The translations under genes were made by a program, and so were the position numbers. Source: a virus. From it: DNA of 64,000 nt. This document shows, in pieces, positions 486 through 49,813 of this stretch. Below the pieces are notes generated by a model. That model was not told where the DNA came from. It worked only from the letters and a program-made list of their open reading frames with translations, and did no database searches. The stretch is from the IMG/VR virus record IMGVR_UViG_3300034033_000050; one strand, given 5' to 3'. Each line of letters starts with the position of its first letter. The stretch's first letter is position 1.

Positions 486-558
486 TTTCTCATTCTCTTT
501 GTTTAGATACTAGATTATACAAACGCTAATTAACCAACATCGCTCAAGCAACCGCCGC

Positions 559-1965
559 TCAAGCAGGTTGCTTTGCATCAAAATAGCCTTCAATGTGTCT
601 TTTAACACAACGAGTCACCATTTTATGCAGCCCTGAAGAGACGCTCTGGCCAATGATTTCCGAGCCGATATCTTTACTCACACAATCTAGCTTAAAATCA
701 GAACACCCCATAATATCCTTAAGCAATCCCTCGCTAGGCATATAGTAACGTCCGTCTACTTTTACGGCTAAAGTATCTTTGGCACCACGATTTTGGCTCT
801 TTAATATTGTAGGTGAAAATTCAGTATCTTTAGTAATTGTTCTTAAGCGACCGCACTTGGCACCATCCTGAATAGATTTACATTCTGTTATGTCGCGGCA
901 ATCTGGCAAGTGTGTTTGAACCACATCCCACAAACGAATATTAGACGTTCTAGGCTGTTCAAACACAAAACCCTCATTTAGCACTGTAAACACAGCATAG
1001 CCGCGCTCACGCCTTGTTATGCTGCCATAATCAGACCCTTTTGCAATCAATAAGTGTTCAGCATAGCCCCATTTAGCCATTCGCAATTTAAACATTTTGT
1101 AAATGTCAGACCTGAAAAAGCCAACCACCTGTTCTAGCATCACGATAGCAGGGGCAACCGCTGAGATAATACGCATAAGGTCAAACGTCATATCTAGCGT
1201 AGAATTTAGATTAATTAACGATTCCTCTTTTAACTTATTGGACTTTACATTGGTAAATTCATCACATTGAATTGAAGCAAGCATAAGACCTGCATTGACT
1301 CCAGCTGATAAAATAGTGTTAACATCAATAGTGGTGATATCTTCATTGAAAACATTTCTAATACTTTTAGTGTTTCGCAATGCTGTTAATGCTCCAGTTT
1401 CGGTCAAATCGCTTTTTCGTTTTGCATCTCTAGCCTCAGAACTGCGATAGTCCAAAAGTGAATTTAATACTAGACCACAATCTTCCATCATGCTGGTGTC
1501 CACTCCACTTGAGCAAATAGCAAACATATTAAGCATATTGGATCTGTTTATGTTTTTTCTTGCCCGTGCAAGATGTGTAATCATTGGCACAACCGTTATT
1601 AGACCGTTTTTAAAGGTTATGTGCAGGTAAACGCAATCATCAGGCAATGATTTATTCAAAAGTTTCTTGCTTCCAGTTTCAAGCAACGTTTCGATTGGGT
1701 TGTTTTTACGTGACTTGTAATTTCTTGAATACACCTTTTTGGTTTTATTTATTGGTGTGTCAAAAATATCAAAGACTTTGCGTATAACGAAACCCTGGTT
1801 TTCTCCCAAAGACTCCTCAACAACCCGATCACCACCTGCAAAATCGAACAAAACGAGCCAATTAGATGAAATAACAACTTTTCTATTCCCTCCTGTTTGC
1901 TTAATCTTCAGCTGCTTGGTTGCTATATTGCTAGGAATTGCAAAGCTTTGAACTAAATTACTCAT
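559..1965 (-). CDS. C5-cytosine DNA methyltransferase with ~140-aa N-terminal extension, no cognate nuclease
   Basis: Degenerate motif I (AICSSGVD), motif IV (SIQC), motif VI (LEQV), motif VIII (RRER), motif X (GQSV) in the expected order. Confidence 0.75.
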   Translation of the reverse strand: MSNLVQSFAIPSNIATKQLKIKQTGGNRKVVISSNWLVLFDFAGGDRVVEESLGENQGFVIRKVFDIFDTPINKTKKVYSRNYKSRKNNPIETLLETGSKKLLNKSLPDDCVYLHITFKNGLITVVPMITHLARARKNINRSNMLNMFAICSSGVDTSMMEDCGLVLNSLLDYRSSEARDAKRKSDLTETGALTALRNTKSIRNVFNEDITTIDVNTILSAGVNAGLMLASIQCDEFTNVKSNKLKEESLINLNSTLDMTFDLMRIISAVAPAIVMLEQVVGFFRSDIYKMFKLRMAKWGYAEHLLIAKGSDYGSITRRERGYAVFTVLNEGFVFEQPRTSNIRLWDVVQTHLPDCRDITECKSIQDGAKCGRLRTITKDTEFSPTILKSQNRGAKDTLAVKVDGRYYMPSEGLLKDIMGCSDFKLDCVSKDIGSEIIGQSVSSGLHKMVTRCVKRHIEGYFDAKQPA

Positions 1966-2176
1966 TGAAACACTCCAAATTATTGATGATAAATTATAGA
2001 AACGCTAGAAACAACTCTTAAAAATAAAGAACGAAAATCTAGAAATAAAATAAATATAATGATACTATTCAATAACGCTAGCGGGAATAATACTGTTAGT
2101 TTTGACCAGAGCCAGTTACCATTGACGAACTGGCTTTGATCTAAAACCAAGAGCAGGCGCTTAATTAATTATCAAA

Positions 2177-2386
2177 TCAGTCCAAAAACCAAATCCCAGA
2201 CTTTTTTACATTTCTGGTTTCTTCCCAACCTTTAGTAGTGACGCGTACAGTCATTTTATCCCCTAAATCTTTAACGAGCTTCACCATAAAAATACCGCCC
2301 ATGCCGCTATTGATAATACATTTTTTAGTGAAATCAATATTTTCCACCTTATTAAGAAATACTTTCTTTTTTGGATTGCTTAACAT
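2177..2386 (-). CDS. hypothetical protein (69 aa)
   Basis: Intact ORF, GGAG-type RBS, downstream hairpin at about 2110-2137. Confidence 0.6.
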   Translation of the reverse strand: MLSNPKKKVFLNKVENIDFTKKCIINSGMGGIFMVKLVKDLGDKMTVRVTTKGWEETRNVKKSGIWFLD

Positions 2387-2443
2387 TTTTCTTCTCCAAT
2401 ATCAGTTATCATCCATTATAGGATTGCTAAATAACGTTAAAAA

Positions 2444-2764
2444 TCAAATAAGCCAGAACCAAGCACCAAAATCAGCCACCCCCTCATTATTATATAAATG
2501 GTATCCAACACTAACCACCAGACCACCACCATAGACATTAATTTCGATGCAGCCTTTACCATACCAATTAACAAGAAAATCTATATACCTATCAATCTCA
2601 CATATCATTGATTGTGTCTTTTCTTTATTTAACGCCATTTGTTTACTCAACAGCTGCTTATAGTCAAACTTAAGGTTAATAACACTCAATGACGCACAAC
2701 CGTAACTTGATGGTGATGGTACTTGAGATACTTGACTAATTTTTTCTAACATATATTTCTCCAA
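2444..2764 (-). CDS. hypothetical protein (106 aa)
   Basis: Intact ORF co-oriented with the array. Confidence 0.55.
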   Translation of the reverse strand: MEKYMLEKISQVSQVPSPSSYGCASLSVINLKFDYKQLLSKQMALNKEKTQSMICEIDRYIDFLVNWYGKGCIEINVYGGGLVVSVGYHLYNNEGVADFGAWFWLI

Positions 2765-2888
2765 TATTATTTAATTATATTTAGCACCAATGTAGAATAT
2801 TTATACAAAACAGTAGTAATTAATAACACTGATACCTTAGTATCTATGGCAAAACGAAATAACCGATAATAAAAAACCAGCCCAAGAT

Positions 2889-3398
2889 TTGATAACAATA
2901 CGATTCGATGATAATATTGAACATATTATAGATTTGGTAACAACCATGGCCATTAATAAAATAAACATAAAACCATACAGGCAGATATTAGAAGCAACCA
3001 TTGCTCATATGACACCTGCAAAGTTCAGTTCAATTCTAGGCAATGCAGCAGCCAACCTTAATGATGTTCACTTAAGAACGGCCATTATAGAAATAATAGA
3101 CGATCTACAAGACAAAGGGTTATTCAAACGAAGTCGCAAACCATTCATGCTATCAAGCAAATATACAGACATTTCTGATTATGATGGGGCAGAAAACATA
3201 TTTCAAAGGGTGAGAGACTACGTTACAGCTGTTGTTGATGCCGACCAAGAGGATAGGGCGGAAATCATTCAGAACATGAATCAAAGCAAAACATTAATAC
3301 CAGACATTGCAAAAATCATGAGTGATTACTGGGACACACATAAAAAGGAGCTTGAAAACGATATTGAAAACGAACTATATAAAGCTGAATACTTTTAA
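2889..3398 (+). CDS. hypothetical protein (start uncertain; alternative ATG at 2947)
   Basis: 169-aa ORF, one of only three plus-strand genes; hairpin at about 3438-3458 between convergent genes. Confidence 0.7.
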   Translation: MITIRFDDNIEHIIDLVTTMAINKINIKPYRQILEATIAHMTPAKFSSILGNAAANLNDVHLRTAIIEIIDDLQDKGLFKRSRKPFMLSSKYTDISDYDGAENIFQRVRDYVTAVVDADQEDRAEIIQNMNQSKTLIPDIAKIMSDYWDTHKKELENDIENELYKAEYF

Positions 3399-3480
3399 CC
3401 TGAACCATATGGATATCAATGTGAAATTTAACAATAAGGCCAAAGAATATCCATGGCCCTATTGGTGCATTATTTAATAA

Positions 3481-3684
3481 TTAAGACAGTCTTTTTTGAC
3501 GCCTAAGCATTTTTTTCTGATTCAACTTGCGTTGTTTTCTATCAAAATAATCATTATGCTTACTTTGCATGACGCTAAATTCCATTTGATTTCTCCAATA
3601 TGGGCTATCGACTCCCATATCCACATTAAACAACCATGACAATAAAACATTAAATTCTTTCTTGAATAATTTAAGTAAACGCAT
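3481..3684 (-). CDS. hypothetical basic protein (67 aa)
   Basis: ORF with motif promoter at 3715 and GGAG RBS. Confidence 0.65.
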   Translation of the reverse strand: MRLLKLFKKEFNVLLSWLFNVDMGVDSPYWRNQMEFSVMQSKHNDYFDRKQRKLNQKKMLRRQKRLS

Positions 3685-3893
3685 TTTGATCTCCTTTGAT
3701 ATTAATAGTAATTAATTATAGATGCGCTAGAAATTAGATAAACTACATCAGTCCCATTGAGATAACGAATGCAGCTCACTATGCACACCCCGCCCAAATA
3801 AATAGCTACGCATTAACTCCAACTAGCACCCCATGAAACACATTGACAAGAGACTACCCTTGTGGCTAACCTTGCGTTAACAAAACATTCCAT

Positions 3894-4310
3894 TTAATTA
3901 GACTTCTTGGTAAGCCGCATGACTCCCTTGATACAGCCCATAAACACCCCTTTTTTGAAAAATAGTGTGCCTCCATCATGATTCCAAACCTGTTTAACGC
4001 CCATTTCCTTCAATAATAAGATATTGCTTTTAGCCATTTTAACGCCGTTAACAACATCAACATCCTGCCAATACTTAATATCCGTATATTTAGAAGACTT
4101 GATCTGACCTATTATCGAAGCAACTCCCTGTTTTAATATGTCTGGACAATCAGATAGTTTATTATCAGCCCAAAGACACTCACCCTCAAAGAAAATAAAC
4201 TTAGACATATCACTAAAACATGACATGCCATCGAGCCTAAAAGGCTTTCTCAACGCTTCGTTTCTTGCCTTGTCATCAATGAAACTTAATACAATTGCTT
4301 CGTTTTTCAC
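3894..4310 (-). CDS. hypothetical protein (138 aa)
   Basis: Intact ORF in array. Confidence 0.65.
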   Translation of the reverse strand: MKNEAIVLSFIDDKARNEALRKPFRLDGMSCFSDMSKFIFFEGECLWADNKLSDCPDILKQGVASIIGQIKSSKYTDIKYWQDVDVVNGVKMAKSNILLLKEMGVKQVWNHDGGTLFFKKGVFMGCIKGVMRLTKKSN

Positions 4311-4361
4311 ACCCTGTCTCCGTAGATTAAAAAATAATTATAATAAGCCCAAATTACTGCA

Positions 4362-4727
4362 CTAAACCCGAACCTCAACAAAACCACCAACATTAACGCC
4401 ACAATCATAGCAAGAATTAAAATTTTCCATATTTTGCTCAACAATCCATTTTTGAGCACTCGCATTCCATACTGTTTTGGCAGCCGAAACAATGTTTGTC
4501 CCATTACAGCTTCTACAATGATACTGAACACGCCTCACACCACCATCGCACCGCCTTAGAGGACCAAACACCTTTATGCCCTTAAAGCCCTTCATTCGCT
4601 TTTGTAGAGAATCCTTAGACATAGAAGCATACAGAGGCATATAGCTAGAATCAAACCCAACCCAAAAACCCATCTCCCGCAAATTGTGAGCATTATCGAC
4701 ACTCAACTCTTTTATACATGTAGACAT
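4362..4727 (-). CDS. hypothetical protein with CxxC pairs (possible Zn ribbon)
   Basis: CRSC and CYDC motifs. Confidence 0.65.
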   Translation of the reverse strand: MSTCIKELSVDNAHNLREMGFWVGFDSSYMPLYASMSKDSLQKRMKGFKGIKVFGPLRRCDGGVRRVQYHCRSCNGTNIVSAAKTVWNASAQKWIVEQNMENFNSCYDCGVNVGGFVEVRV

Positions 4728-4796
4728 TTAATTATCCTTTAATGATATTAATACTCATATTTTAAACTGACGATAAACTGCAGATCTCATTCAAAT

Positions 4797-5339
4797 TTAA
4801 CGAACCCTATCATCATTAAAATCTAAATTCACTTGAATATATTTGTTGTCATGTGATTGTTCGGTGATAAAATAACCAATTCTGAAACCTTGATGGAAGC
4901 CACTTACAAAATCAATATCCCCATTTGGCGCATCGGTAAAAGTCCAAACATATTTACTGTCCATACTGCGCACATGGGCGACCTCTGGACCATAGGTTTC
5001 AAACATACAATCATTCAAGCTCGACTCATCTTTTGATATGGTGTTTTTTACCATGGTGTATTTTTCATCAAAATCATCTTCACTAATTACCATATCAGTT
5101 CTAACAAACACACCTTCATCGCCCAATGCGTATTGCACCGAATGCTCATCGCACAAATGTTCATTTGTAACAGCACAAAAATAGGCCTCATCATCATGCA
5201 GTAAATGAGTTTTACACACATCACAAACAACACACTCATCCAGCCATTCTTTGGACAATTTAAAATCAGTAATTTGTTTATCGGTAAACTCTACGCCTCT
5301 TTTTTTATATTCTTGGATTACTTCATCAAAATTACTCAT
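4797..5339 (-). CDS. hypothetical acidic protein, Cys/His-rich N-terminal half
   Basis: ORF with motif promoter at 5373; CxxCxxC and CxxH motifs. Confidence 0.75.
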   Translation of the reverse strand: MSNFDEVIQEYKKRGVEFTDKQITDFKLSKEWLDECVVCDVCKTHLLHDDEAYFCAVTNEHLCDEHSVQYALGDEGVFVRTDMVISEDDFDEKYTMVKNTISKDESSLNDCMFETYGPEVAHVRSMDSKYVWTFTDAPNGDIDFVSGFHQGFRIGYFITEQSHDNKYIQVNLDFNDDRVR

Positions 5340-5433
5340 AAGACACCATTTTTTTTATTGTTTAATTATTAGATTATAGACATGCGACATACACAAAAAC
5401 ATAAAAGCAACGGGAAGAAAATGGATATAACAC

Positions 5434-5670
5434 CTATGGCAGTATGAGCCCATTAGCAAAAACAGACTTAATGAAGTTATCCAAATCATCCAAACTCCCA
5501 CGTTTTATATAAGCACCAGTTAATGAAGCCACCAAATCAGAAATGCCATCAATTTGTTTATCTATATTGAAATATCTAGCCACAACCTCTTGTTCGTTCA
5601 CAATAAACCATTGCCCAACCCTATCAAAAGTAGCTTTCCACTCAGCTAATGAAAATTCGAGTTCAGTCAT
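5434..5670 (-). CDS. hypothetical protein (78 aa)
   Basis: ORF; its upstream region is a near copy of the one before 4797-5339. Confidence 0.7.
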   Translation of the reverse strand: MTELEFSLAEWKATFDRVGQWFIVNEQEVVARYFNIDKQIDGISDLVASLTGAYIKRGSLDDLDNFIKSVFANGLILP

Positions 5671-5765
5671 AAGACACCTTTATATTATTGTTTAACTACT
5701 AAATTATAGACATACGACATACACAAAACGTAAAATCACATCGAATGGGGTAATGAATTAAGAAG

Positions 5766-5938
5766 CTAGGCGGTCAGAATAACCTCCACAAGCGTTTTGT
5801 TCACAATACCTAGCTCATATTGTCTAGAATGGCTAAAATAATCTTTAAGCACACTCAACGCCCAATCACAGCCGGTTATATCATCATAACAATCCCATCT
5901 TTTTGAACATGTTTTACAATATTATTGTACAAATTCAT
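5766..5938 (-). pseudogene. possible frameshifted small gene
   Basis: One extra base in the T4 run at 5912-5915 would give a 57-aa ORF (MNLYNNIVKTCSKRWDCYDD...); no homolog available to confirm. Confidence 0.3.
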
Positions 5939-5971
5939 TTTTGTTCTAGACTTCGCATTTAGAGTCATCAT

Positions 5972-6208
5972 TTAAGCCACCTTTGATTGTAATAATTTAA
6001 TTTTTGCCACAATTGCACTGCATATCGTTCCACCTGCAGACTCGCCCATTTTTTCAGTTTGAAAATGAAATTCCTTCCACAATTGGTTTACATCCTTACC
6101 CTCTGTTATTTCATCAATTTCTGTACACTCATCACCAAAAAAACAAGAAAGATTATTTTCATAAGATGCATTATCGGGATTAAACAAAGTATTAATATTA
6201 TTTGACAT
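5972..6208 (-). CDS. hypothetical acidic protein (78 aa)
   Basis: ORF with GT-N5-TATAAT at 6237. Confidence 0.7.
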   Translation of the reverse strand: MSNNINTLFNPDNASYENNLSCFFGDECTEIDEITEGKDVNQLWKEFHFQTEKMGESAGGTICSAIVAKIKLLQSKVA

Positions 6209-6252
6209 GATTTATTTCCATTAATTTATATATTTAATTATAGACAAACACA

Positions 6253-6285
6253 AAACCCCTGTGGCTAACTTAATGCCACAGGGGA
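6253..6285 (-). terminator. intrinsic terminator
   Basis: CCCCTGTGGC/GCCACAGGGG stem followed by a T-run on the minus strand. Confidence 0.8.
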
Positions 6286-6298
6286 CTATGAAAACCAG

Positions 6299-6826
6299 CT
6301 AGAGCAAAGCCATTACTTTTAAAATAACACCTGATATCACTCCCAAAGCCTCGCAAAGATCAGACTTTGTACAACGAAAATAAAATACCCCCTCACACAT
6401 CGCAGTAATTTGCCATTCTTCGGCATTGCCAAGATTCTCAATTACAAGCTCAACCCCGTCCAAGGCATGGCTATTTCCACTTATTTTATCTTCGACATTG
6501 ATATTAATAGTAAACTCATTACTAGAGTCTTGAAACCCATCCTGCCAATATTCGCCACCCTTTGCAATATCAGAACTAAATAACAAAGCCTCAAGATGCC
6601 AACCAAGGGCCGTTCTATCAACATAGGGAAAAGCATAATCCAACAACGCACCGCATCCTAATTGCTCGCCTGCATCACCAGATTTGGAAAATGAAGAGAT
6701 ATAACCTCTGTTTTTATTAGCATCATTTGTAATATCTACCTGTCTTACAGCCTTACCATAAGTAAAAGTGATTTCTGTATCAATTGAACGGTTTTTGGAT
6801 ATGGGAACTATTTTTGAATTTGCCAT
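6299..6826 (-). CDS. hypothetical protein (175 aa)
   Basis: ORF with GC-N5-TATTAT promoter at 6857 and terminator. Confidence 0.75.
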   Translation of the reverse strand: MANSKIVPISKNRSIDTEITFTYGKAVRQVDITNDANKNRGYISSFSKSGDAGEQLGCGALLDYAFPYVDRTALGWHLEALLFSSDIAKGGEYWQDGFQDSSNEFTININVEDKISGNSHALDGVELVIENLGNAEEWQITAMCEGVFYFRCTKSDLCEALGVISGVILKVMALL

Positions 6827-6938
6827 GCTGTATGCCTTTATGATTGGATATAGCTAATAATAACCACGCTAAATAACCGATTAGAATTTACTTACACCCC
6901 ATACATTAGAAATGATTTCTAGTATATTTTAGAGCCAA

Positions 6939-7283
6939 TTAAGCGGCAATATCTTCTACCATAGCCATAAGTTCCGATGTCCGAACCGAAGAATATAATT
7001 TTCTCGCATCTGCTCTATTAATATGTTTTTGTCTTGATATTTTTATAATCAAACGATGTCTTATGACCCTATTTGCATTTGATTTAGCCTCCAAAGGTAT
7101 TAAGGCTTGCTTACATGCGTATAGCACAGCCTTTTCGATTGGGGACGACCAATCAGAATGAATTAAAGAATTAGCACAAACAGGATTGCTATCAAGCAAA
7201 GCTTGAACACGTTTATCTATTCGATTACAAATTCTATCCATGACCCTTAAGATTCTCGCTTCATCTGTTTTCCAATTACGCAT
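6939..7283 (-). CDS. hypothetical protein (114 aa)
   Basis: ORF with GT-N5-TATAAT at 7315 and GAGAG RBS. Confidence 0.7.
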   Translation of the reverse strand: MRNWKTDEARILRVMDRICNRIDKRVQALLDSNPVCANSLIHSDWSSPIEKAVLYACKQALIPLEAKSNANRVIRHRLIIKISRQKHINRADARKLYSSVRTSELMAMVEDIAA

Positions 7284-7335
7284 AATATTCTCTCGCTTTA
7301 ATTAATACTGATTAATTATAGATTGACCATATATA

Positions 7336-7626
7336 GAAAAAAAAGAATAATTAGAGTTTTGCATAGTGAGGAAGTGCTGCGATCCCTGGTAGGAGCGAAG
7401 CAAAGACCAGGGATCGCAGCAAGACGAACCACTCTGCTAGACATATTCGGTATAAAACCAAGTGGACGATACATCACACCTCAAACATGCCTATAAGCCA
7501 AAACTCTAATTATCTTTTCTGTAACCAACAACCAATCATAATAAAATGAAGAAACATTCTGGTTGCCAATCACCCTTAAAAACCCCAGCAACCATGCCCT
7601 TGCAAGTTAACACATTGGTTACTGAT
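7336..7626 (-). ncRNA. candidate ~290-nt structured ncRNA or ssDNA element
   Basis: Motif promoter at 7633-7645; no ORF of 60 aa or more; perfect 15-bp IR 7347-7361/7499-7513; perfect 15-bp inner stem 7376-7390/7406-7420; 8-bp IR 7521-7528/7615-7622; U8 run right after the outer stem. Confidence 0.6.
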
Positions 7627-7644
7627 GTTAATATTATAGTCACG

Positions 7645-7797
7645 CTATAAATCACCAGATTTAATTCTGGTTCTTAAATCGGTTTTGCGTGACTGTCGCA
7701 AAGCCTTACCACTTTTTACGTGGACAGACCCTTTGCCCATTAATGGATGATTCCAAAACAGATTTCTCACAACTTTCTTATTTTTATTGTTTTTCAT
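7645..7797 (-). CDS. small basic protein (50 aa; start re-set to MKNNK)
   Basis: Motif promoter at 7825; Lys/Arg-rich. Confidence 0.6.
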   Translation of the reverse strand: MKNNKNKKVVRNLFWNHPLMGKGSVHVKSGKALRQSRKTDLRTRIKSGDL

Positions 7798-7889
7798 TCC
7801 AATCACCACTAATATAATTACTAGATTATAGGCATGCCACAACCCCATAAAAAAACACTTTCATTTATAAGTAAAGTCACATATAATTA

Positions 7890-7964
7890 GCACTCTGCTG
7901 AATAAGCAGCTTAGAAAATAATATTTATAAAAATCCATTTACTGCTGAATAAGCAGCTTAGAAA
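7890..7964 (+). CRISPR. cas-less type I-F-like mini-array: two 28-nt repeats, one 19-nt spacer
   Basis: Repeats 7890-7917 and 7937-7964 share the identical 23-mer CTGCTGAATAAGCAGCTTAGAAA; the second matches the I-F consensus GTTCACTGCCGTATAGGCAGCTTAGAAA at 23/28 with a compensatory C-G to T-A stem change; TATAAT at 7882-7887; terminator at 8000-8025. Confidence 0.8.
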
Positions 7965-7999
7965 GTTATAATTATATTATTAACCACCCAATAGGTGGC

Positions 8000-8025
8000 A
8001 AAACCCGTTTTATAAACGGGTTTTT
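8000..8025. terminator. bidirectional intrinsic terminator
   Basis: AAAACCCGTTT-TAT-AAACGGGTTTT, T-runs on both strands. Confidence 0.8.
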
Positions 8026-8365
8026 ATTTGCCCACATGATTTAAAAATGAAGGTATATCAGGCTCACCACACTCAACCCAAGCTCCACTCTTCTCAGATA
8101 CCTCCAACCATATATCAACAGACGAGAACCACACCGTTCCATTGACAAACATATAGTCATCATCACTAGGGAACTCTTCATAATCAAAATCCAATTTATC
8201 TAGGAACTCATTAAAATCGCCGTGAGAATAACCCTGTTTCAGCATAATACAGTCTTTTTGTGGCAATAAAGGCTCATCCGAAACATGAACAATAGCACAT
8301 TTAATAGAATAATTACCGGCATCGGACAGAGCCTCCAACAGCTCTTGTTTTGCATTTCTAGACAT
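8024..8365 (-). CDS. hypothetical acidic protein (start re-set to MSRNAK)
   Basis: GGAG RBS before 8365. Confidence 0.7.
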   Translation of the reverse strand: MSRNAKQELLEALSDAGNYSIKCAIVHVSDEPLLPQKDCIMLKQGYSHGDFNEFLDKLDFDYEEFPSDDDYMFVNGTVWFSSVDIWLEVSEKSGAWVECGEPDIPSFLNHVGK

Positions 8366-8553
8366 TCTAAAACTCCAAATATTTATGTTAAAATCATTAT
8401 AGTGAAACCATATAATCAACCATTAATACAAATAAACCAATTCCACTAGCAACATCACATCCAACATTGATGATATATATTCGTTATTTATACAATCAAA
8501 TTTAAAACTATTGCCATTTATAAAATGTATTTTCATAAACATAATTTGATCGT

Positions 8554-8967
8554 TTAACTTCGCTCCATCCATGGACACATAGCTAAAGGCAAATGTATAT
8601 CCATTTCATTTTCCAAATAAGCCTTGCTTTCAAACTTCTCAAGCTTACATTCATCGTAATTTGCTGGAGATGGCTTTCTATCTGTAGAGTCAAAGTTTGT
8701 ATACCGCCCATTCTTAAAATAAGTTGTGCAATAGAAAGTTTCTCCTGTTTTAAGACTGTATTGCGTGAAGTCAAAAACAAAAAACAACAATGGATACTGT
8801 AAGCTATGATAAAACCACGCTGTTTGAATCCTATCCAAGTCACCAAAACACTCTGTATCAAATGGCACTCCCATAGCCACGCTCAGGCTTCGCTTGTGTT
8901 CCTCAACATCGACTCCACCACAACTCATGTCAAAATTTAATATTACTTTGTCCTTGCTCACACACAT
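8554..8967 (-). CDS. hypothetical protein (137 aa)
   Basis: ORF with motif promoter at 8995. Confidence 0.7.
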   Translation of the reverse strand: MCVSKDKVILNFDMSCGGVDVEEHKRSLSVAMGVPFDTECFGDLDRIQTAWFYHSLQYPLLFFVFDFTQYSLKTGETFYCTTYFKNGRYTNFDSTDRKPSPANYDECKLEKFESKAYLENEMDIHLPLAMCPWMERS

Positions 8968-10846: not shown

Positions 10847-10871
10847 AGGTTTACCCTGTTGTTATATTCAA

Positions 10872-40792: not shown

Positions 40793-40831
40793 TCTAACTC
40801 TCCAAATTTACGATAAATAATTATATTGCAC

Positions 40832-41728: not shown

Positions 41729-41739
41729 CTATACTTGAT

Positions 41740-42252
41740 TTAAGATATTATATGAATGCCAAGAATCCGCATCAAATGCAAGGCTTGAGATTTAGCATCA
41801 TTCAAAGCATTATGCTTTTCCCCATACATTTCAAATTCTTCATCAAGCATCAACTTACAAGCAGTTCGATAACAACAATTATTATGATAGTCCCAAGGAA
41901 CAACTAACCCCAATTGTTCATAGGAGTTTCTTAGTATTACGTTGTCAAAATCAGCGCCATTACCCCACAACTCATCAATATCTCCAGCCCAAACAGAAAA
42001 CTCAACCAAGGCATCCTTAAGGCTCTTAGGTTTATCAAATAAAGCATTGCGAACACAATCATTTTGCTCCATCCAAAATTGGATACACTTACCATCAATT
42101 TGCGAACCTGATTCTAAAGAGCTGCTCAAATCCACATTAATATAAAATTCATCAAGAACGTTCGTTGAATCAAATTTCACAGCTCCGATTGAAACAATAG
42201 CGGCATTACTCTTTGTGCTAAAAGTCTCCAAGTCCAACATTATTTTATTCAT
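41740..42252 (-). CDS. DEDDh 3'-5' exonuclease (Rv2179c/phage type)
   Basis: MLDLET, WGNGADFDNVIL, HNALNDA. Confidence 0.85.
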   Translation of the reverse strand: MNKIMLDLETFSTKSNAAIVSIGAVKFDSTNVLDEFYINVDLSSSLESGSQIDGKCIQFWMEQNDCVRNALFDKPKSLKDALVEFSVWAGDIDELWGNGADFDNVILRNSYEQLGLVVPWDYHNNCCYRTACKLMLDEEFEMYGEKHNALNDAKSQALHLMRILGIHIIS

Positions 42253-42302
42253 TCACATTACCAAATTAAGATAATAGAATTATATACAAACGATGATTTG
42301 AA

Positions 42303-43151
42303 TTATGAAGCCCTGGCTATTGGTTCCCAATTTTCCAGATCCTCTTTAACTGCATCAAACTGAAAACCCCTGACTCTCCTTAACCCTGAAACATTATAAG
42401 TGGTTTTAAGATATTCCAGAAAATAAATCCTATCAGGCAATTTAAGAAATATAGCATTTAACTCTTTTACCTTTTTAGGTGTTAACACATCCCATTCTTC
42501 ATCTGTATATTCATGCAACTCACCAGAATAGCACTCAGGCATATCTACAAACACATTAAGAACACTGCCAGCCAATACATCTTTTTTAGCTTTAGTGGTG
42601 GCAGCAAACACACACTTATCAATGGTTAGCTGAGTATCTTTAATACTACAAGAAACAACCAATGATGGTTTCGATGCAACAGTAATATTTCCACCCAATT
42701 TATGCGAAATATTCATATTTACTTGTATTTGCTTCAAACCAGTTTTTTCATCAACTTTTGATTCAATGCTCGTAAAGCTAAAGTATAAATCATGTTCAAC
42801 TAATTTTTTTACAACTGCTTTTTTTACATCTTGATATCTTGTGTGATAAACCAATTCAGGCCTTCCTTTTGCCACGTACTCCAATCTAGCACTACATGGC
42901 ACAATCAATGGATTTGCATTAAAATCAAGGATCGCTTGATTAAGTGCCATTTTTTGAACCTGGCTGACCTGGTGAACGCTATACTCTTTTTTCTTCATTA
43001 ACTGATTAATGATAGATTCATAGTTCATCGGGCCACAATCATCAGTTGTAGCAACATCGTCCAATACAGGCACAGCTGCAAATTTTGGTTTACTAGGACC
43101 ACGATAATATTTCTTACCACGATACTTTCTATTATTTTTTGATTTTGGCAT
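42303..43151 (-). CDS. putative ERF-like ssDNA annealing protein
   Basis: YQDVKKAVVKKLVEHDL...ISHKLGG...AATTKAKK pattern with C-terminal helical tail; next to the exonuclease. Confidence 0.45.
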   Translation of the reverse strand: MPKSKNNRKYRGKKYYRGPSKPKFAAVPVLDDVATTDDCGPMNYESIINQLMKKKEYSVHQVSQVQKMALNQAILDFNANPLIVPCSARLEYVAKGRPELVYHTRYQDVKKAVVKKLVEHDLYFSFTSIESKVDEKTGLKQIQVNMNISHKLGGNITVASKPSLVVSCSIKDTQLTIDKCVFAATTKAKKDVLAGSVLNVFVDMPECYSGELHEYTDEEWDVLTPKKVKELNAIFLKLPDRIYFLEYLKTTYNVSGLRRVRGFQFDAVKEDLENWEPIARAS

Positions 43152-43178
43152 AACTTACTCCTATTTATTCAACATCAA

Positions 43179-43460
43179 CTAACTACAAACAAGCGTTTGT
43201 TCTAACTCATCTTCACTAAGAACCTCAAAAGGGTGCTTCATTTTTTCATTGTCCCATGAAACACAACACGTTCTCTTAACTCCGAAAGCCTTAAGCTCTA
43301 ACTCTTTTTTTCTAACATCAATGATTTTATAAAAATCATTAGATTTTATAGATCCCTTTAATTCCTCAACATCAGTTGCAAATCGGACCCATTTTCCAAT
43401 ACTGGACTTAATAACACTTATTGACTCACAAACCTTGTTACCGACCACAACGACCTCCAA
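43179..43460 (-). CDS. hypothetical protein
   Basis: Motif promoter at 43477. Confidence 0.6.
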   Translation of the reverse strand: MEVVVVGNKVCESISVIKSSIGKWVRFATDVEELKGSIKSNDFYKIIDVRKKELELKAFGVKRTCCVSWDNEKMKHPFEVLSEDELEQTLVCS

Positions 43461-43496
43461 AACTATTTATTAACGAATTATAATGAGGCGTTAATA

Positions 43497-43691
43497 TCAC
43501 AAATCAGAAACACCAGTAAGTGCATATTCATCAATCCAATTCTCGCCACATGACTCACACTCGCACTCACTAGTTGCACCCATAGATTCTGCCTGAATAC
43601 GCCCAGCACTTATGTCTTCAGATTTACAAAAAGGGCAACAACTTGGAGCTACCAGATAACTTGCTTTTTGCTTACTTGTTAATATACCCAT
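43497..43691 (-). CDS. small Zn-ribbon protein
   Basis: CPFC and CESC; GC-N5-TAAAAT upstream. Confidence 0.7.
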   Translation of the reverse strand: MGILTSKQKASYLVAPSCCPFCKSEDISAGRIQAESMGATSECECESCGENWIDEYALTGVSDL

Positions 43692-43822
43692 TTATTTCTC
43701 TACTACAGTTCAGTTTATACATTTTATAGATGCTAAAAAAAAAGCAGACCATTACAGCCCGCTTTAAAGGATCACTTTTTATTATTATTATCGACCCACA
43801 CCCACTAAAATTATTATTATTA

Positions 43823-44038
43823 TTATTTATCTTCCTTTATACAAAACCTATAAATCACCAAAAACAAATTCAGCACATTTATAATAACGTCCACAGTACT
43901 TGCCACCAAGCCCTGTGATCCAACCAACCCAGAAACATCCTTTAATCGCTGTATATCATCAGCACTTAATTCAATCTCTATTTGCTCCAATCCATCAGGC
44001 ACATTACTTTCAATTACATCCAATGCAAACATTTGCAT
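43823..44038 (-). CDS. hypothetical protein
   Basis: GT-N5-TATAAT at 44069. Confidence 0.6.
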   Translation of the reverse strand: MQMFALDVIESNVPDGLEQIEIELSADDIQRLKDVSGLVGSQGLVASTVDVIINVLNLFLVIYRFCIKEDK

Positions 44039-44109
44039 AAAATATCACCTGTTTAACCTAAAAAACATATTATAGACCGACTATTAATTCAGAATAAAGC
44101 CATTAAAAA

Positions 44110-44925
44110 TCAATCCTTAAGGGTTTTAACCAGAGGTATGCCATTAGCTCCTGATGGTATGTATACGGTTGTATGATTAGGGGAATCCGCCATAGCTCTC
44201 TGAGCCAAAATCGCTTCATGCTGGAGGTACTTTAAAGAGAGGGTAGAGTTAATAATCTTCTGTGCTTCAGCAATACCACGAGCTTCTTCAATTCTGATTT
44301 CAGCATCCTTTTTAGCAATTTGTCTTTGAGTTTCTTTTTCATCGAGCAATTGTTTGGCTGCTAACTTTTTTTCAACCGCTTGGGTCACTACTTTCGGATA
44401 ATCAATGTTTCCTACAACTCCAGATATTGCAACAAAAGGCGTTCCTTTTAAATACCCTCTAAGTTCCACCATAACAGCTTCTGCTATTTCACTGCGCATT
44501 TCCTTAACTTGTCTTGAATCTAGTTTTTGGACATGTTTTCTGACCATCGCACGCAAAGGCTCTCTGATAAATCTGGGATAAAAATTCAATCCAGCATATT
44601 CCTCAACAACATCCTTAATCGCACCTTTCTTGACTTTTATAATGGATTGAAACCTAAAATAAATATTCAGCTCATCTTTTGCTAAAATATTAAATTCCTC
44701 AGGATAGGTCTGGGGACGAATATCAATGTTCAAAACTTCATTACGGTATAAACTTACACCATAGTTTGAAGGCCCGGTCATAACCCCTCGAAAACCACCT
44801 GTGCCAAACATTCTTGGATTCTCAATCACATATCCTTCAGATCCTGGAGGCGTCATTGGATTACTACACGCTCCCAAACTAAATAAACCCACAAGAACCA
44901 AAATTCTTAAAATTACTTTTTTCAT
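44110..44925 (-). CDS. SPFH/Band 7 domain lipoprotein
   Basis: Lipobox LGAC, AKDELNI, coiled coil with AEIRIEEARGIAEAQ. Confidence 0.85.
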   Translation of the reverse strand: MKKVILRILVLVGLFSLGACSNPMTPPGSEGYVIENPRMFGTGGFRGVMTGPSNYGVSLYRNEVLNIDIRPQTYPEEFNILAKDELNIYFRFQSIIKVKKGAIKDVVEEYAGLNFYPRFIREPLRAMVRKHVQKLDSRQVKEMRSEIAEAVMVELRGYLKGTPFVAISGVVGNIDYPKVVTQAVEKKLAAKQLLDEKETQRQIAKKDAEIRIEEARGIAEAQKIINSTLSLKYLQHEAILAQRAMADSPNHTTVYIPSGANGIPLVKTLKD

Positions 44926-44970
44926 ATTTACACCCCTACTTTACATTAATAAAAATCAAATTAATTTATT

Positions 44971-45213
44971 TTAACTTGAAAAACCTACCATAGCACCGGC
45001 AATCAAAGCCGCTGCCTGACCAGAACTCAACGAACACGTTCTTGGTTCATTAGCTCGCTTAATAGCCCTCTGCAACCTCTGTTGCGCCTCATCTAAACGA
45101 ACTTGGGCACGCCTTATATCTTCCTTGGCAGACAAAACCCTTTTTTCAAGCATCCCAATCATCCTAATTTGATTAGAACTACCAACCTTTTCAACATTCA
45201 CTTTCATGGCCAC
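44971..45213 (-). CDS. hypothetical coiled-coil protein
   Basis: Intact ORF. Confidence 0.6.
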   Translation of the reverse strand: MAMKVNVEKVGSSNQIRMIGMLEKRVLSAKEDIRRAQVRLDEAQQRLQRAIKRANEPRTCSLSSGQAAALIAGAMVGFSS

Positions 45214-45267
45214 AACCTTCTCCTAAAATCATAAAGAACAATAATCCATTGTAATAACACTAAATAC

Positions 45268-45955
45268 TTAACAAATATATTTCCTTTGGGTCTTATCTGC
45301 AACCTGTACATCTAAACCAATTTTAGAAGCATCAGCTTTACCGTTTTTATATGCATCAAATTGCTCTTTACTTACAAGTTTACGCGACTGCACTTTAGAC
45401 TCCTGCATCCCAAAATGCACCTCAACAAGCTCCTTTTTAATTACAACCAAATCTGTTCCCGTTAACGATTCCAAATCCGCCTTGCGCTTTTCCATTTCCT
45501 CCTCAATACGGCGATTTAACTCAACAGCAGCTCCACACTTATAACTATTAGCCATCACACCCTTGTAACCACCTTCCTTACGTAATCTCTCAACCGTTTC
45601 AACCAAATACTCATGGGTATACAAAGCAATAATTGCATCGGCCTCAAACCCCTTAAACTCAACAACCCTAGACCTTCCAGGCCCACAAACACCCTACTAA
45701 TCCACAAACACAATCATTCCACTTAGCAACTATAAGTGCTATTGACTGAATCCAAACTGGCCAACGCGCTTTAGCAGTTGAATTAGAAGACGTGCCAAAG
45801 GATGTCTTTTCTCCGATGTCAGATTCTTCTATCTGGTGCTTATCCATTAAAGACCTAGCCATTTTTGCAGCAACAACGGCTTCTTTAGGAGAGCCAGCAC
45901 AATTAGCCATTGCCAATAGCTTGCGAATCTTATCAATTACTTTCTTATTACCCAT
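45268..45955 (-). pseudogene. DUF2786-family gene split by a 19-bp insertion or duplication
   Basis: KIRKLLAMA...EAVVAAKMA N-terminal domain; the C-terminal half is in another frame; 10-bp direct repeat CCACAAACAC at 45683-45692 and 45702-45711; removing 19 bp gives 223 codons. Confidence 0.75.
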
Positions 45956-46244
45956 TTATCAACGCCTCTATAAAATTAACATTATCTTTTAAATATTCCT
46001 TTAAATAAGCCAAAGTTCGACCTTTTAAAAACTCCAGTCCAAATGGTGCATCAATCACCTTTTGAGCTTTAGAGATACCGTTATACACTAAATCAGTAAT
46101 AACAAAGTGAAGAGGATAGAAGAACCATCTTGAACCCATATCACCACTTAAATCCCAAACATCATCTTTGGTATGGTTTTTATTTCCACCTTCAATCTGA
46201 TAATCATCTCCATCTGGTGTAACTAGTAACAACTTATACGACAT
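45948..46244 (-). CDS. hypothetical protein
   Basis: Motif promoter at 46273. Confidence 0.7.
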   Translation of the reverse strand: MSYKLLLVTPDGDDYQIEGGNKNHTKDDVWDLSGDMGSRWFFYPLHFVITDLVYNGISKAQKVIDAPFGLEFLKGRTLAYLKEYLKDNVNFIEALING

Positions 46245-46299
46245 CTCATCACCTTAATATTTTAATTAAGACATTATAATTTTGCTAAAAATACACAAA

Positions 46300-47064
46300 T
46301 CAGGCCACCTTTAATTTAATTGATTCTATTTCACACATTAACCCACATGAAATATTTGGTTCTTTCAATATATTCCCTGCATTCGGTTCTAATTCATCTA
46401 AATATATAGATACTCTGCCATGTTTTGTTTCTTTTCTAATAATTGAAATACCAATATCGCGTTCCACACTGGCCATTCTATTGAAAACACTTGGAAAATG
46501 TTCCCTGATCAAGTTCCAATAACCCATCCCGCCTTTTGGACACCCAATACAATTATTATTTAAAAATCCCAACGTATACATTACTGGAATTTCAATACCT
46601 GCCTTTTTCAACATTCCCAAACAGTCATCTTTAGTTAACCACTTCTCAATCAATATGGTTCTAATCATTCTTTCGGGATTGTGTTCTTTGAATCTAGCAA
46701 CTCTGTGCTTTTCTTCAATCGTGTATCCAAAATACTCAACATCCCCAAACTCAATATATCTTCGTGCAACCAGCTTTTTTAGCTCAGTAGTGCATCTAGC
46801 CCCACTAGGCCCAACAAGATATTTAGTTTTACTGAATACATCCCATATATCAGTATACTTATCAGATTTTAAAATTAATATTTTCTTACCGAACCATTTC
46901 TCACAATCCTTTAAAAATCTAATATTATCAGGATGCTCTGAACCTGTATCTTGATATATAATCTCAATATTAGGGTTTTCTTGTAGTAGTAGCTTGGTAG
47001 CAACAGCACTCGCCGCCCCACATGAGAACCAAGCTATAGTTTTATTATCATCCACAATACCCAC
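46300..47064 (-). CDS. PAPS-reductase-like (PP-loop) protein of the phage type
   Basis: FSCGAAS PP-loop variant, EHPDN, CTTELKK, NNCIGCPKGG. Confidence 0.75.
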   Translation of the reverse strand: MGIVDDNKTIAWFSCGAASAVATKLLLQENPNIEIIYQDTGSEHPDNIRFLKDCEKWFGKKILILKSDKYTDIWDVFSKTKYLVGPSGARCTTELKKLVARRYIEFGDVEYFGYTIEEKHRVARFKEHNPERMIRTILIEKWLTKDDCLGMLKKAGIEIPVMYTLGFLNNNCIGCPKGGMGYWNLIREHFPSVFNRMASVERDIGISIIRKETKHGRVSIYLDELEPNAGNILKEPNISCGLMCEIESIKLKVA

Positions 47065-47421
47065 CTATAGAAATCTAAAAGACTTAATTAATGATCCACA
47101 AACACTGCCACCACCTGTAGAATTGCTTTGCTTAATCTCAAGATGACAAGGTATCCAGCCTGTAGAGCGCCCAATGTAAAATCTAGCACTACTTCCATCA
47201 TGATAAAAAACCTCAACACGCCTACCTTCATGCCCAATAAACGGCTGATACAATCCTGTTTTACTCTTAAAACCACTATTTAAATGCCGCTCCTTAACGA
47301 CATTAACAACATTATTGTATTCACTTAACATCTTCATAGTGCCCCTATACTTAGAAACAACACTCAAACCAAGCTCAGTGGCCAATTTATTAAGTCGCTC
47401 ATAAACAACATCAAAACCCAA
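47065..47421 (-). CDS. hypothetical protein
   Basis: Intact ORF abutting the PP-loop gene. Confidence 0.6.
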   Translation of the reverse strand: MGFDVVYERLNKLATELGLSVVSKYRGTMKMLSEYNNVVNVVKERHLNSGFKSKTGLYQPFIGHEGRRVEVFYHDGSSARFYIGRSTGWIPCHLEIKQSNSTGGGSVCGSLIKSFRFL

Positions 47422-47552
47422 ACAACAAACAATCCTCTTCCTTTATATACATAACATCTTTTATATTTAATATATTCATATATAACTCACTTTTATTAAT
47501 ACAACCATTGCCTTACACCTCAAGTATAACTCAACGAAAAACCACACAACCC

Positions 47553-47852
47553 TCAATTATTTCTGATAGCCGACTCTGCTTTTTCTATGACACCAGACTC
47601 TAGACCGCTGAACCACAAAGACCAATAGAGTTTTGTTTCATCATTAGCATGTTCCAAGCCAATTGCCACAAGCTTCTCTATGTCTTGCTTATATGCATCA
47701 GTATCAGACATAAGCATTTCAGCTATTGCATTATTTAAGTGATTGTGACCAGCCTGTTTTATTTGCTTTGAACCCATCATTATCTCCACGATATTTAATT
47801 TATGATTAATCATAATCACACTCAAATTAAAAAGGTAATAACATTCACTCAC
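47553..47852 (-). CDS. hypothetical protein (true start probably later)
   Basis: Intact ORF. Confidence 0.5.
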   Translation of the reverse strand: MSECYYLFNLSVIMINHKLNIVEIMMGSKQIKQAGHNHLNNAIAEMLMSDTDAYKQDIEKLVAIGLEHANDETKLYWSLWFSGLESGVIEKAESAIRNN

Positions 47853-47969
47853 TAGCTCGAATATTTATGTATACATTAACTTTATTCCTTGCTTACAGAA
47901 CAAATCAACGAGCGAGTGAGTCACAACGCTATTTCCATACTTTCAACTGAATTTGATTTTAAGGTCAGG

Positions 47970-48254
47970 TTAGTCAGAAACACTACAACGCGGTAAAAAG
48001 CAATCCCTCAATTTAAGTTCATCACGGTCAAAACACCACTTTATCCCCAATACATCATGACGAAAATCATCAGAATTGGACGTATAGAGTTTTCTGAAAT
48101 CCAATCCAATATCATGGTTATTAACCAAGGAAAGGTCCATTACAACATCCATAAACAGGTCCTCAGATACTAAACGCATTGAAACAGAGCGATTAGCACA
48201 CTTAGACACAAGCTTTGCATCACCCAAACATAAATCAAAATTCTTTTCTTTCAT
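47970..48254 (-). CDS. DUF6874-like protein (start re-set to MKEKNF)
   Basis: MDL...LDF..L...DDFRHDVLGI...DCFLPR pattern; GGAG RBS. Confidence 0.6.
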   Translation of the reverse strand: MKEKNFDLCLGDAKLVSKCANRSVSMRLVSEDLFMDVVMDLSLVNNHDIGLDFRKLYTSNSDDFRHDVLGIKWCFDRDELKLRDCFLPRCSVSD

Positions 48255-48267
48255 AAAAACTCCAAAA

Positions 48268-48594
48268 TTAAAAATAATCACTAGATATACTAGATAACCA
48301 ACGATCCTTAATAGAGTCCCTTAACTTAAGTCGCCCAACATAAGCAGTAAGTCTTTTCTTGGCAGCATCCAACTCATCACGCTTGCCAATTTCAACTGCA
48401 GAATTAGGACATTTGCCAAACCCGGCAATTGATTCACGCATCATGTTAGGAGAAAACTCAACCACACAACCGCACTCAAATTCTCTTTTCTCATTCCAGT
48501 GCCCATTGATATGTTTATTTCTCCTGCTTTCAGAACAACACGGGCTCCCACAATCTGGGCACAATTTACTTGTTATATCTTTTAATAAACTCAT
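48268..48594 (-). CDS. hypothetical Cys-rich protein
   Basis: CPDC, FECGC, CPN. Confidence 0.7.
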   Translation of the reverse strand: MSLLKDITSKLCPDCGSPCCSESRRNKHINGHWNEKREFECGCVVEFSPNMMRESIAGFGKCPNSAVEIGKRDELDAAKKRLTAYVGRLKLRDSIKDRWLSSISSDYF

Positions 48595-48641
48595 TTTAAT
48601 TCCTTCAAATAGTTAATAATTACAATTACACTATAAACACA

Positions 48642-49355
48642 CTAAACAACAGTCTCATAATCAGCCAACATAAATGCCTTGCTATCATAAGACACGCCAT
48701 TAATACGATTGACTAGAGACAAGCAAAACCTATCCTTGTAGACCTTTAACAAAGACTTGCCCTCTGGGAATGCATCACTTGCAGAATGTTTGTATATAAT
48801 TTGATGTGAACACGCAGGTACAAGTACAGAAACAAGCTTATTGCTATCTATAATTTCTACTATTGTTCTTATTTGGTTTAATACGTATGCATTTAATATC
48901 AGCTCAATAGATTCAATATGACACAAATATTCTGAAACCGCATCCATTTCTCTTCTACCAAGAAGATAGCCAGAGATAGAGTAGGGATATTTGTCTACAT
49001 CAAACAACACAAGTTGCTTTTCAAATCCGTTAAACATAACAGTACCGCCATCTTCTTGGATATCCGAATACTCAACATAAAAGCCACTACCGTCTAAGCT
49101 ACAAGTAAGCCTAAAAAACCGAGTATGTTCATATTTAAAAAACTGGTTACGAACCACTTCATCAAAATCATTATCAGTACCACCAACGTCCGTAAGAAAC
49201 TTATCCAAAATATCATAATCTTCAATACAAATGTCTTTAGCATCTACAACATAGATAGCACCATCATCACTAATGACGCCCTTCTGAACTAAAACCAAAT
49301 TCCATTCTTCAGAATCAAAATTATCCTTATCAAAAGCATATACCTTATTACTCAC
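48642..49355 (-). CDS. hypothetical acidic protein
   Basis: GAGG RBS; TATAAT at about 49388. Confidence 0.7.
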   Translation of the reverse strand: MSNKVYAFDKDNFDSEEWNLVLVQKGVISDDGAIYVVDAKDICIEDYDILDKFLTDVGGTDNDFDEVVRNQFFKYEHTRFFRLTCSLDGSGFYVEYSDIQEDGGTVMFNGFEKQLVLFDVDKYPYSISGYLLGRREMDAVSEYLCHIESIELILNAYVLNQIRTIVEIIDSNKLVSVLVPACSHQIIYKHSASDAFPEGKSLLKVYKDRFCLSLVNRINGVSYDSKAFMLADYETVV

Positions 49356-49454
49356 AACAACACCTCGAATTAAATTATTAATAAAATATTATAGCTAAAA
49401 GAGAAATCCAACAATACAGACAAGCATAGTTGGATTTTCATTTACAATTTAGGA

Positions 49455-49733
49455 TTAAGCTCTATAAACCTCATAAGAGGTAATGGTAAAATCCTCACCG
49501 CTAGAATCACCTAATTGGATCAATGACTTTATTGCCCTCTCATCCAATCCAAAAAAGAAAATATCCTCATCCACAAAGGTATCACCATCATCTAAGTCCA
49601 ATTCTTCATAAATAAGCGATCCCTTAAAATAATCACAATCAGAATTTGCTGGTTTAAAATAACCATCAACTTGAAAAATCTTTGGCAGGGTAATATCTGT
49701 TAATTTAGGCAGCTCACTTTTCACATCATTCAT
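49455..49733 (-). CDS. hypothetical acidic protein
   Basis: GGAG RBS; GT-N5-TATAAT at about 49758. Confidence 0.7.
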   Translation of the reverse strand: MNDVKSELPKLTDITLPKIFQVDGYFKPANSDCDYFKGSLIYEELDLDDGDTFVDEDIFFFGLDERAIKSLIQLGDSSGEDFTITSYEVYRA

Positions 49734-49813
49734 AAAACACTCCGATTAATTTATTAATTATAAAAACACTACAAAACACAATATTTATCAATGCCCGTGC
49801 ATGGCATAGAAGA

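Follow-up and report, generated by a model that had tools for sequence, protein, structure and literature searches.

What reads a promoter that keeps a consensus −10 hexamer and avoids both the −35 element and the extended −10, when probably some 65 copies of it precede the genes of a single mobile element? The question is raised by a 64,000-nucleotide (nt) stretch of the IMG/VR virus record IMGVR_UViG_3300034033_000050 (the window, in what follows), which has 35% G+C and carries nearly all of its genes on the minus strand, many of them behind a T-rich box held at a fixed distance from TATAAT, and which also encodes an RpoD-like sigma (σ) protein, P0001. An earlier note on this DNA had counted more than 35 such sites between positions 514 and 49770, described them as G-C or G-T at −19/−18 upstream of TATAAT without a consistent −35 element, and attributed them either to a regulon read by a factor of the element, possibly the σ-like protein, or to a σ70 preference of the host lineage.

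The bipartite arrangement is clearly over-represented in the window. Matches to GYNNNNNTATAAT (GY-N5-TATAAT) number 43, of which 40 lie on the minus strand, against an expectation of 9.94 ± 3.38 from dinucleotide shuffles (maximum 23); TATAAT alone shows no enrichment (123 vs. 108 ± 10 after shuffling). G-C or G-T stands exactly 7 and 6 nt upstream of the hexamer (−19/−18) at 40 of the 76 minus-strand copies of TATAAT, against 4–12 at any other offset, and at 3 of the 47 plus-strand copies. The position table built from the 40 sites reads T−25 T−24 T−23 n T−21 A−20 G−19 Y−18 n4 Y−13 TATAAT, with T−29 and G−28 as weaker additional positions and with zero information in the spacer between −17 and −14. 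Longer forms of the pattern depart further from expectation (TAGY-N5-TATAAT, 15 in the window vs. 0.73; TTTNTAGY-N5-TATAAT, 9 vs. 0.05), and when T.TAGY is followed by TAnnnT, a gap of 5 nt occurs 32 times and every other gap within 1–10 nt between 0 and 10 times. Because this register is fixed, the idea that the T-rich part consists merely of terminator tails was dropped. The consensus is thus T(−25)TTnTAG(−19)Y(−18), exactly 5 nt, and TATAAT or a one-off variant of it, 19 bases in total.

An iterated weight matrix with a threshold of at least 10 bits recovers 71 minus-strand sites, whereas the plus strand has 2 and shuffled sequence 4.6. The −10 hexamer is a perfect TATAAT at 44 of the 71 sites, TAAAAT at 9, TATTAT at 5 and TATGAT at 3, the rest being single variants; the approximately 27 sites with an imperfect hexamer carry the box in the same register. 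G−19 and A−11 are each present at 69 of the 71 and T−7 at all of them; T−12, A−11, A−8, and T−7 are almost invariant. Matches antisense to the putative rep gene (62146, 63016, 63703) and one inside the σ gene (52244) are probably false, and about 65 of the 71 are probably real. The count in the earlier note was therefore sound, and its four example sites (9636, 25185, 28368, 46273) read as claimed; the array that it delimited is confirmed as well, but extends further (to 59346), its motif is longer (−25 to −18), and it includes imperfect −10 hexamers. We take these sites to be real promoters of one compact class, peculiar to this family of elements, in which the box stands in for the −35 element.

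Away from a −10 hexamer, the box is unenriched in the window (14 minus-strand and 20 plus-strand copies), which argues that it is part of a promoter and not a free operator or an independent binding site. The same result bears on the proposal that the box, overlapping the spacer, would serve a global repressor as operator half-site, like the repressors that silence plasmid backbones, so that the array is shut down once the element has become established. One recurrent site over every promoter is generally known to wire some plasmid regulons, and a protein bound at −25 to −18 would block polymerase; however, the box is an asymmetric stretch of just 8 base pairs (bp), has no second half-site and is followed by uninformative positions at −17 to −14, keeps its register with the −10 hexamer to the nucleotide and is not found away from it. 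A repressor would, moreover, leave the replacement of the missing −35 element unexplained, and we regard this proposal as very improbable.

That the −35 element is missing is seen in several ways. The best match to TTGACA at 16–18 nt upstream of the hexamer averages 2.34 of 6 positions over the 71 sites, compared with 2.56 of 6 at random positions; no position between −40 and −30 carries more than 0.22 bit of information; and a scan of the window for canonical promoters yields 90 matches vs. 79 ± 10, that is, no enrichment. TG at −15/−14, the extended −10 element, occurs at only 2 of the 71 sites. Nor do the sites carry a σ54 signature (GG at −24, GC at −12), since the matrix has T at −24 and T at −12. 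The few promoters outside the class are likewise without a −35 element, namely those of the reductase small-subunit gene, of the putative rep gene and of the plus-strand gene at 37373; among these non-class promoters (60633–60832, minus strand; 62000–62082, plus strand), pieces resembling TTTAG or GC are shifted by 1–3 nt relative to TATAAT.

The sites are placed where promoters would be expected. A site lies within 110 nt upstream of 59 of the 113 minus-strand open reading frames (ORFs), and the distance from the end of the hexamer to a start codon preceded by a Shine-Dalgarno (SD) sequence is mostly 24–33 nt. Terminator-like hairpins number 21 in the first 20 kilobases (kb), against 10.5 expected, and several stand directly before a promoter. 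Because many promoters follow the terminator of the preceding gene, the array is a chain of short, separately started units. This layout can be set against the proposal that the array consists of Frpo-like promoters active on single-stranded DNA, or of promoters for a single-subunit RNA polymerase of phage type whose gene lies on another part of the element. A contiguous 19-bp layout is loosely like that of SP6 and T7 promoters, and leading-region-like genes in a single orientation recall T-strand expression (PMC11541004). Frpo promoters, however, are long hairpins that rebuild both −35 and −10, and the present promoters have no −35; promoters of single-subunit polymerases are conserved throughout −17 to +1, whereas four spacer positions are free here; neither the window nor the relatives described below showed a polymerase of this kind; and the promoters stand in short gaps, about 30 nt before start codons. 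Very little credence can be given to this proposal.

Few cases are known of promoters that lack a −35 element and depend on a second element beside the −10 hexamer, namely extended −10 promoters, the late promoters of phage P1, and the poorly defined Z-element. Extended −10 promoters are also independent of −35 and have an extra element in fixed register upstream of the hexamer, but the G of the present box lies 5 bp further upstream, on a different face of the helix. In phage T4, the MotA box (TGCTT) is centred near −30, at 11–13 bp from −10. The middle promoters governed by MotA and AsiA are similar in that a box of the mobile element replaces −35 while a σ70-type −10 is kept, in an early-type region; here, in contrast, the box occupies −25 to −18 with a single 5-nt spacing, and no match to the MotA or AsiA families was found among the ORFs scanned. 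The earlier note was thus right that the −35 element is poor or absent and that neither the extended −10 nor the MotA box explains the motif, but it missed two analogues at the same position, which are compared next. Further candidates were set aside: the PigR response element of Francisella sits 6–7 bp upstream of −35 and not in the spacer, and any likeness to the half-site of the KorA operator (TTTAGC) or to SP6 promoters is at odds with an unconstrained spacer and with the lack of a second half-site.

The first analogue is the late promoter of phage P1, in which a 9-bp "−22 region", 4 nt and a −10 hexamer make up 19 bp without a −35 element (annotated P1 record AF234172). The P1 boxes (AAGTGATTT, AAGTTACTT and AAATGACTA) are followed by N4 and then by TATCCT, TACCAT, TACAAT or TAGAAT, and are read by the phage activator Lpa (gp10), on which the promoters depend and which acts together with host SspA and the σ70 holoenzyme. 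Both designs are bipartite, 19 bp long and without −35, with a box centred close to −22 whose short distance from −10 is constant; P1 combines a 9-bp box with 4 nt and the element an 8-bp box with 5 nt. They also differ in that the P1 box is palindromic (of the 4 late promoters read, 3 have AAGTnACTT, and LPsit has AAATGACTA) while the box of the element, TTTnTAGY, is asymmetric and T-rich; in that P1 hexamers are weak (TACAAT, TATCCT) and those of the element near consensus; and in that P1 employs the design at a few late operons, compared with about 65 units of an early-like or anti-defence array. The second analogue is the Z-element, contacted by the β′ zipper, which was mapped to −22 to −18 of T7 A1 and can substitute for −35 if the −10 is strong; its consensus is loose (AACCT, AACAT), and single substitutions have effects of less than 2-fold (Yuzenkova et al., 2011; PMC3173786). 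It stands, as the present box does, about 5 bp upstream of −10, and its examples are early promoters of a mobile element (T7 A1, A2). Its sequence, however, is unrelated to nTAGY; the element has an almost invariant G−19 and a box that reaches −25; and natural Z promoters also have a −35 element, which the promoters of the element lack. The class is a new form within the known group of −35-less promoters whose second element adjoins the −10 hexamer.

Only two relatives of the element were found, and both carry the σ-like gene. The first (L001) is a 9.5-kb contig with the same operon and a σ-like protein of 63% identity; the motif stands in both of its promoter-bearing gaps, as ATTTAGT-N5-TATTAT and TTAATTAGT-N5-TATAAT (13.1 and 13.4 bits), 30–31 nt before ATG, and the 13.1-bit site at position 92 occupies the place orthologous to the σ-operon promoter at 59328. 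The second (L214/L215), a 51-kb contig of the metagenome-assembled genome GCA_045267885.1, encodes a σ-like protein of 31% identity and keeps the gene order: a divergent gene and 2 kb of non-coding DNA come first, the reductase small subunit, ArdC-like, σ and hydrolase genes follow, and the array lies downstream. At least 8 sites with G−19, a T-rich box and N5 precede array genes there, with a looser −18; they include TTTTTTTGT-N5-TATAAT, TTTTTAGC-N5-TAAAAT, ATTTTTAGA-N5-TATAAT and AATTTGAGT-N5-TATAAT, and sites of at least 8 bits number 11 on the plus strand and 2 on the minus. Recurrence of the same design in both relatives shows that the promoter architecture has been stable across deep divergence of the element. 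Further searches extended the family no more: megablast of pieces of the window against phages and plasmids gave no match, nor did tblastn of the σ-like, putative Rep and ArdC-like proteins against plasmids; scans of viral, genome and metagenome contigs for related loci with the σ protein or its alignment found none; and when IMG/VR was scanned for the pattern TTTNTAGCNNNNCTATAAT, the matches listed were single and background-like.

Whether the motif is instead a habit of host promoters was examined by counting TAGY-N5-TATAAT, with the reversed pattern as control, in five low-G+C Gammaproteobacteria and in 401 genomes drawn evenly from that class. These genomes, of 1–6 Mb, hold 0–63 copies, compared with 15 in the 64-kb window, and in nearly all of them the count does not exceed that of the control (for example, 1 vs. 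4 in G044, an unpublished member of the 401-genome sample on which no conclusion rests). All five apparent outliers that were checked lack a peak at N5: counts for N4/N5/N6 are, for example, 41/63/71 in G323 and 65/63/65 in G159. The 2.0-Mb genome G097, to which we return below, gives 18/18/22. In G097, TTGAC-N17–19-TATAAT has 2 matches vs. 6 in the control, counts too small to be telling. In none of the genomes sampled is the motif a general property of promoters. A lineage-specific host σ70 preference, the second explanation offered by the earlier note, accordingly finds no support among the 406 sampled Gammaproteobacteria, G097 included, which serve as proxies for the host. Because the design occurs only in the element and its two known relatives, which have the same σ-like gene, it probably marks a private transcription program.

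The σ-like protein P0001 is a candidate reader of this program. It matches Pfam Sigma70_r3 with 28.6 bits (cut-off 25.3) and phrog_351 with E = 4.9e-13, and aligns to SigA/RpoD chains of the PDB over regions 2.2–3.1; a profile of the three family sequences matches residues 193–524 of E. coli-type RpoD, that is, the non-conserved region and regions 2–3 (E = 1e-10), which indicates that the protein descends from a proteobacterial RpoD. Its matches to phages are weak and confined to regions 2–3, and the family is rare, with 1 homolog in a search of 5.8 billion sequences and 2 full-length homologs among 1.84 billion representatives. Region 4 is undetectable by sequence: residues 455–600 are without a PDB match, nothing beyond region 3 matches, and a conserved ELIS..AK..L..LS segment resembles region 4.2 by eye only, with different base-contacting residues. 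Within region 2.3/2.4, the motif YATWWIRQAITR becomes YATHYAELFIRN; Y430 is kept, W433 is replaced by H or S, W434 by Y, Q437 by L, and T440 by R, and all three members of the family share an unchanged YA..YAEL..RN pattern. The protein also has about 190 extra C-terminal residues without detectable relatives.

That regions 2–3 are kept and nothing is recognizable past region 3 would fit a reader that retains the −10 and has lost the −35. Approximately 65 promoters that avoid both −35 and TG are unexpected if region 4 of σ70 is available, and an RpoD derivative with regions 2–3 and no recognizable region 4 would predict promoters of exactly this kind. On balance, we lean toward a reader encoded by the element, whether the σ-like protein or an activator. 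As to which of these, the RpoD-derived σ of the element itself is the likeliest single candidate but can be advanced only tentatively, and a small activator working with the host σ70, by analogy with Lpa at P1 late promoters, seems quite unlikely; that the plasmid-borne RpoD derivative is a working σ whose remodeled C-terminal half reads the −25 to −18 box instead of −35 is, in this specific form, doubtful. In the probable mechanism, a σ domain 2 of RpoD type would melt the DNA and read the −10 hexamer, a determinant encoded by the element would read the box one helical turn upstream and so replace the contact between σ region 4 and −35, and the whole array, including the σ operon, would be tied into one regulon. 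The element-factor regulon suggested by the earlier note is hence favored, given that both relatives have the σ-like gene and that none of the 406 genomes is enriched at N5, but with a qualification that concerns the −10 contacts of the protein.

In σ70, W433, Q437, and T440 help to read the −10 element at its upstream border, around −12. The σ-like protein has lost the equivalents of all three, yet the promoters keep a textbook TATAAT, and this is the first of several points that weigh against a reader encoded by the element. Because the σ operon itself stands behind a promoter of the class, the σ-like protein would have to switch on its own gene, or the host polymerase would have to start it off, although this is no contradiction, because alternative σ factors commonly drive their own operons. 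Structure models of P0001 are poor (predicted local distance difference test, 33.6 for the full length and 49.4 for residues 260–620) and show neither the presence nor the absence of a region 4-like domain. For an activator, no homolog of Lpa was found in the window (phmmer, all ORFs of at least 40 amino acids, best E-value 1.2), and about 50 window ORFs scanned against Pfam include no recognizable DNA-binding family. The family has three known members only, for which reason the co-occurrence of motif and σ-like gene is weak evidence, and the 406 genomes are proxies for the host of the element. No sequencing run was listed for positions 51565–56000 and no RNA run for 8900–10400, the latter being represented only by small DNA runs labeled soil metagenome or metagenome (at most 0.22 of words). 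Lastly, the genes for SSB, the ArdC-like and AcrVA2-like proteins and the methylases, as anti-defense genes, should be expressed at once on entry (PMC11541004), which favors the host polymerase.

This expectation leads to the alternative that the holoenzyme of the host primary σ reads the promoters alone, the box being an optimized spacer element touched by core enzyme or σ (β′ zipper, region 3 or non-conserved region). The promoters would then be of the "−10/Z" type, as proposed for T7 A1 and A2, tuned for immediate strong expression, and the σ-like protein would serve another class outside the window. The hexamer is indeed a textbook RpoD −10 with nearly invariant A−11 and T−7, and the TAGY core (−21 to −18) falls on the map of the Z-element (−22 to −18; PMC3173786). 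A σ gene behind such a promoter would recall phage σ genes, which sit behind host-type early promoters and usually serve a later class, possibly located here in the remaining 79 kb of the element; and because the rep and plus-strand genes are also without −35, weak use of −35 could be general in the host. Set against this, the Z consensus is loose and its effects are below 2-fold, unlike TTTnTAGY, whose G−19 in 69 of 71 sites and unvarying spacing look like a base-specific contact; the N5 peak occurs in no sampled genome; and it would be odd for 65 σ70 promoters selected for strength all to avoid both −35 and TG. We consider a reading by the host holoenzyme alone a serious rival, although a rather unlikely one.

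Under any of these readings, the element provides about 65 natural copies of one −35-less design with a near-invariant G−19, kept across relatives whose proteins are 31% identical, and the motif serves as an annotation tool for the starts of transcription units, non-coding ones included, in this element family (Table 1). If the σ-like protein reads the box, it would form with these promoters a ready-made orthogonal pair with a recognition geometry new to the σ70 family, and σ and the approximately 65 promoters together would constitute a self-contained, host-insulated transcription system that is carried from cell to cell and runs an anti-defense arsenal. If the host enzyme alone reads it, the array would define a sequence-specific spacer element better than any natural case to date.

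Table 1. Promoters and associated features of the window, in order of position.
Feature	Position	Strand	Remark
Unidirectional gene array, nearly every transcription unit headed by the bipartite promoter	514..59346	−	~65–70 sites
Full promoter, TTTCTAGC-GTTTC-TATAAT	1993..2011	−	
Full promoter, TTTCTAGC-GCATC-TATAAT	3715..3733	−	
Full promoter, TTTATAGC-GTGAC-TATAAT	7633..7651	−	Heads the ~300-nt ORF-less unit (7336–7645)
Full 19-bp promoter, TTTTTAGC-GAATC-TATAAT	9636..9654	−	~30 nt before SD and ATG
Full promoter, G-T variant, TTTATAGT-CGTTT-TATAAT	34315..34333	−	
Full promoter, TTTTTAGC-AAAAT-TATAAT	46273..46291	−	
Full promoter, TTTGTAGT-GTTTT-TATAAT	49757..49775	−	
Promoter with imperfect −10 (TAAAAT) and consensus box TTATTTAGC in register	50331..50349	−	16.6 bits; represents ~27 such sites
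Conserved operon: 322-amino-acid (aa), ArdC-like (540 aa), 409-aa, 477-aa, σ-like (743 aa), 92-aa, and Hydrolase_2 proteins	50750..59298	−	Syntenic in L001 and L214
RpoD-derived σ-like protein P0001, 743 aa	51565..53796	−	Candidate reader
Motif promoter, GC-AGGAA-TATAAT, heading the operon with the ArdC-like and σ-like genes	59328..59346	−	

The array and its surroundings encode SSB, Sir2, 5′-nucleotidase, an exoribonuclease, an SPFH protein, two orphan DNA methylases, RecD2, ribonucleotide reductases, and the ArdC-like and AcrVA2-like proteins, while dozens of window ORFs are without a family match. This content resembles the anti-defense leading regions of conjugative plasmids (PMC11541004) or else a phage early region. 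Beyond the operon, at 61.2–63.7 kb, lie a field of iterons and a divergent gene of 552 aa without a family match; the field (61242–62080) is large, consists of direct and inverted repeats with GGTGAGGTTCTGACAC-type units and is flanked by a small ORF of the minus strand on one side and by the divergent gene on the other. In L215 the equivalent location holds the 2-kb non-coding stretch, next to a divergent gene of 413 aa. As for the host, the 5′-nucleotidase gene shows 47–57% identity to diverse Gammaproteobacteria only, and protein atlas matches point no further than Pseudomonadota.

Within the anti-defense array, the plus strand carries two copies, 19 nt apart, of a 28-nt type I-F-like CRISPR repeat, GCACTCTGCTGAATAAGCAGCTTAGAAA at 7890–7917 and ATTTACTGCTGAATAAGCAGCTTAGAAA at 7937–7964, the latter matching Rfam CRISPR-DR4 with 37.3 bits. 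The pair has the look of isolated repeat units or of a miniature array and is thereby a candidate for an RNA anti-CRISPR (compare PMC10651486); it is also a hint of a type I-F system in the host. G097, a low-G+C gammaproteobacterial genome, is the only one of the 401 with a CRISPR array whose repeat differs by 1 base over the 24 nt searched; the spacers of that array gave no match to the element. It is the sole member of its order in the genome set and offers a lead to the host lineage of the element family.

The ORF-less unit at 7336–7645 (minus strand) is 75% identical to positions 20479–20800 (plus strand) of L214, far above the 31% identity of the σ proteins. In L214 this stretch lies behind a motif promoter and directly after a reverse transcriptase gene (RVT_1, 19518–20270); no reverse transcriptase adjoins the unit in the window. 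We take the unit for a conserved structured RNA, possibly of retron type.

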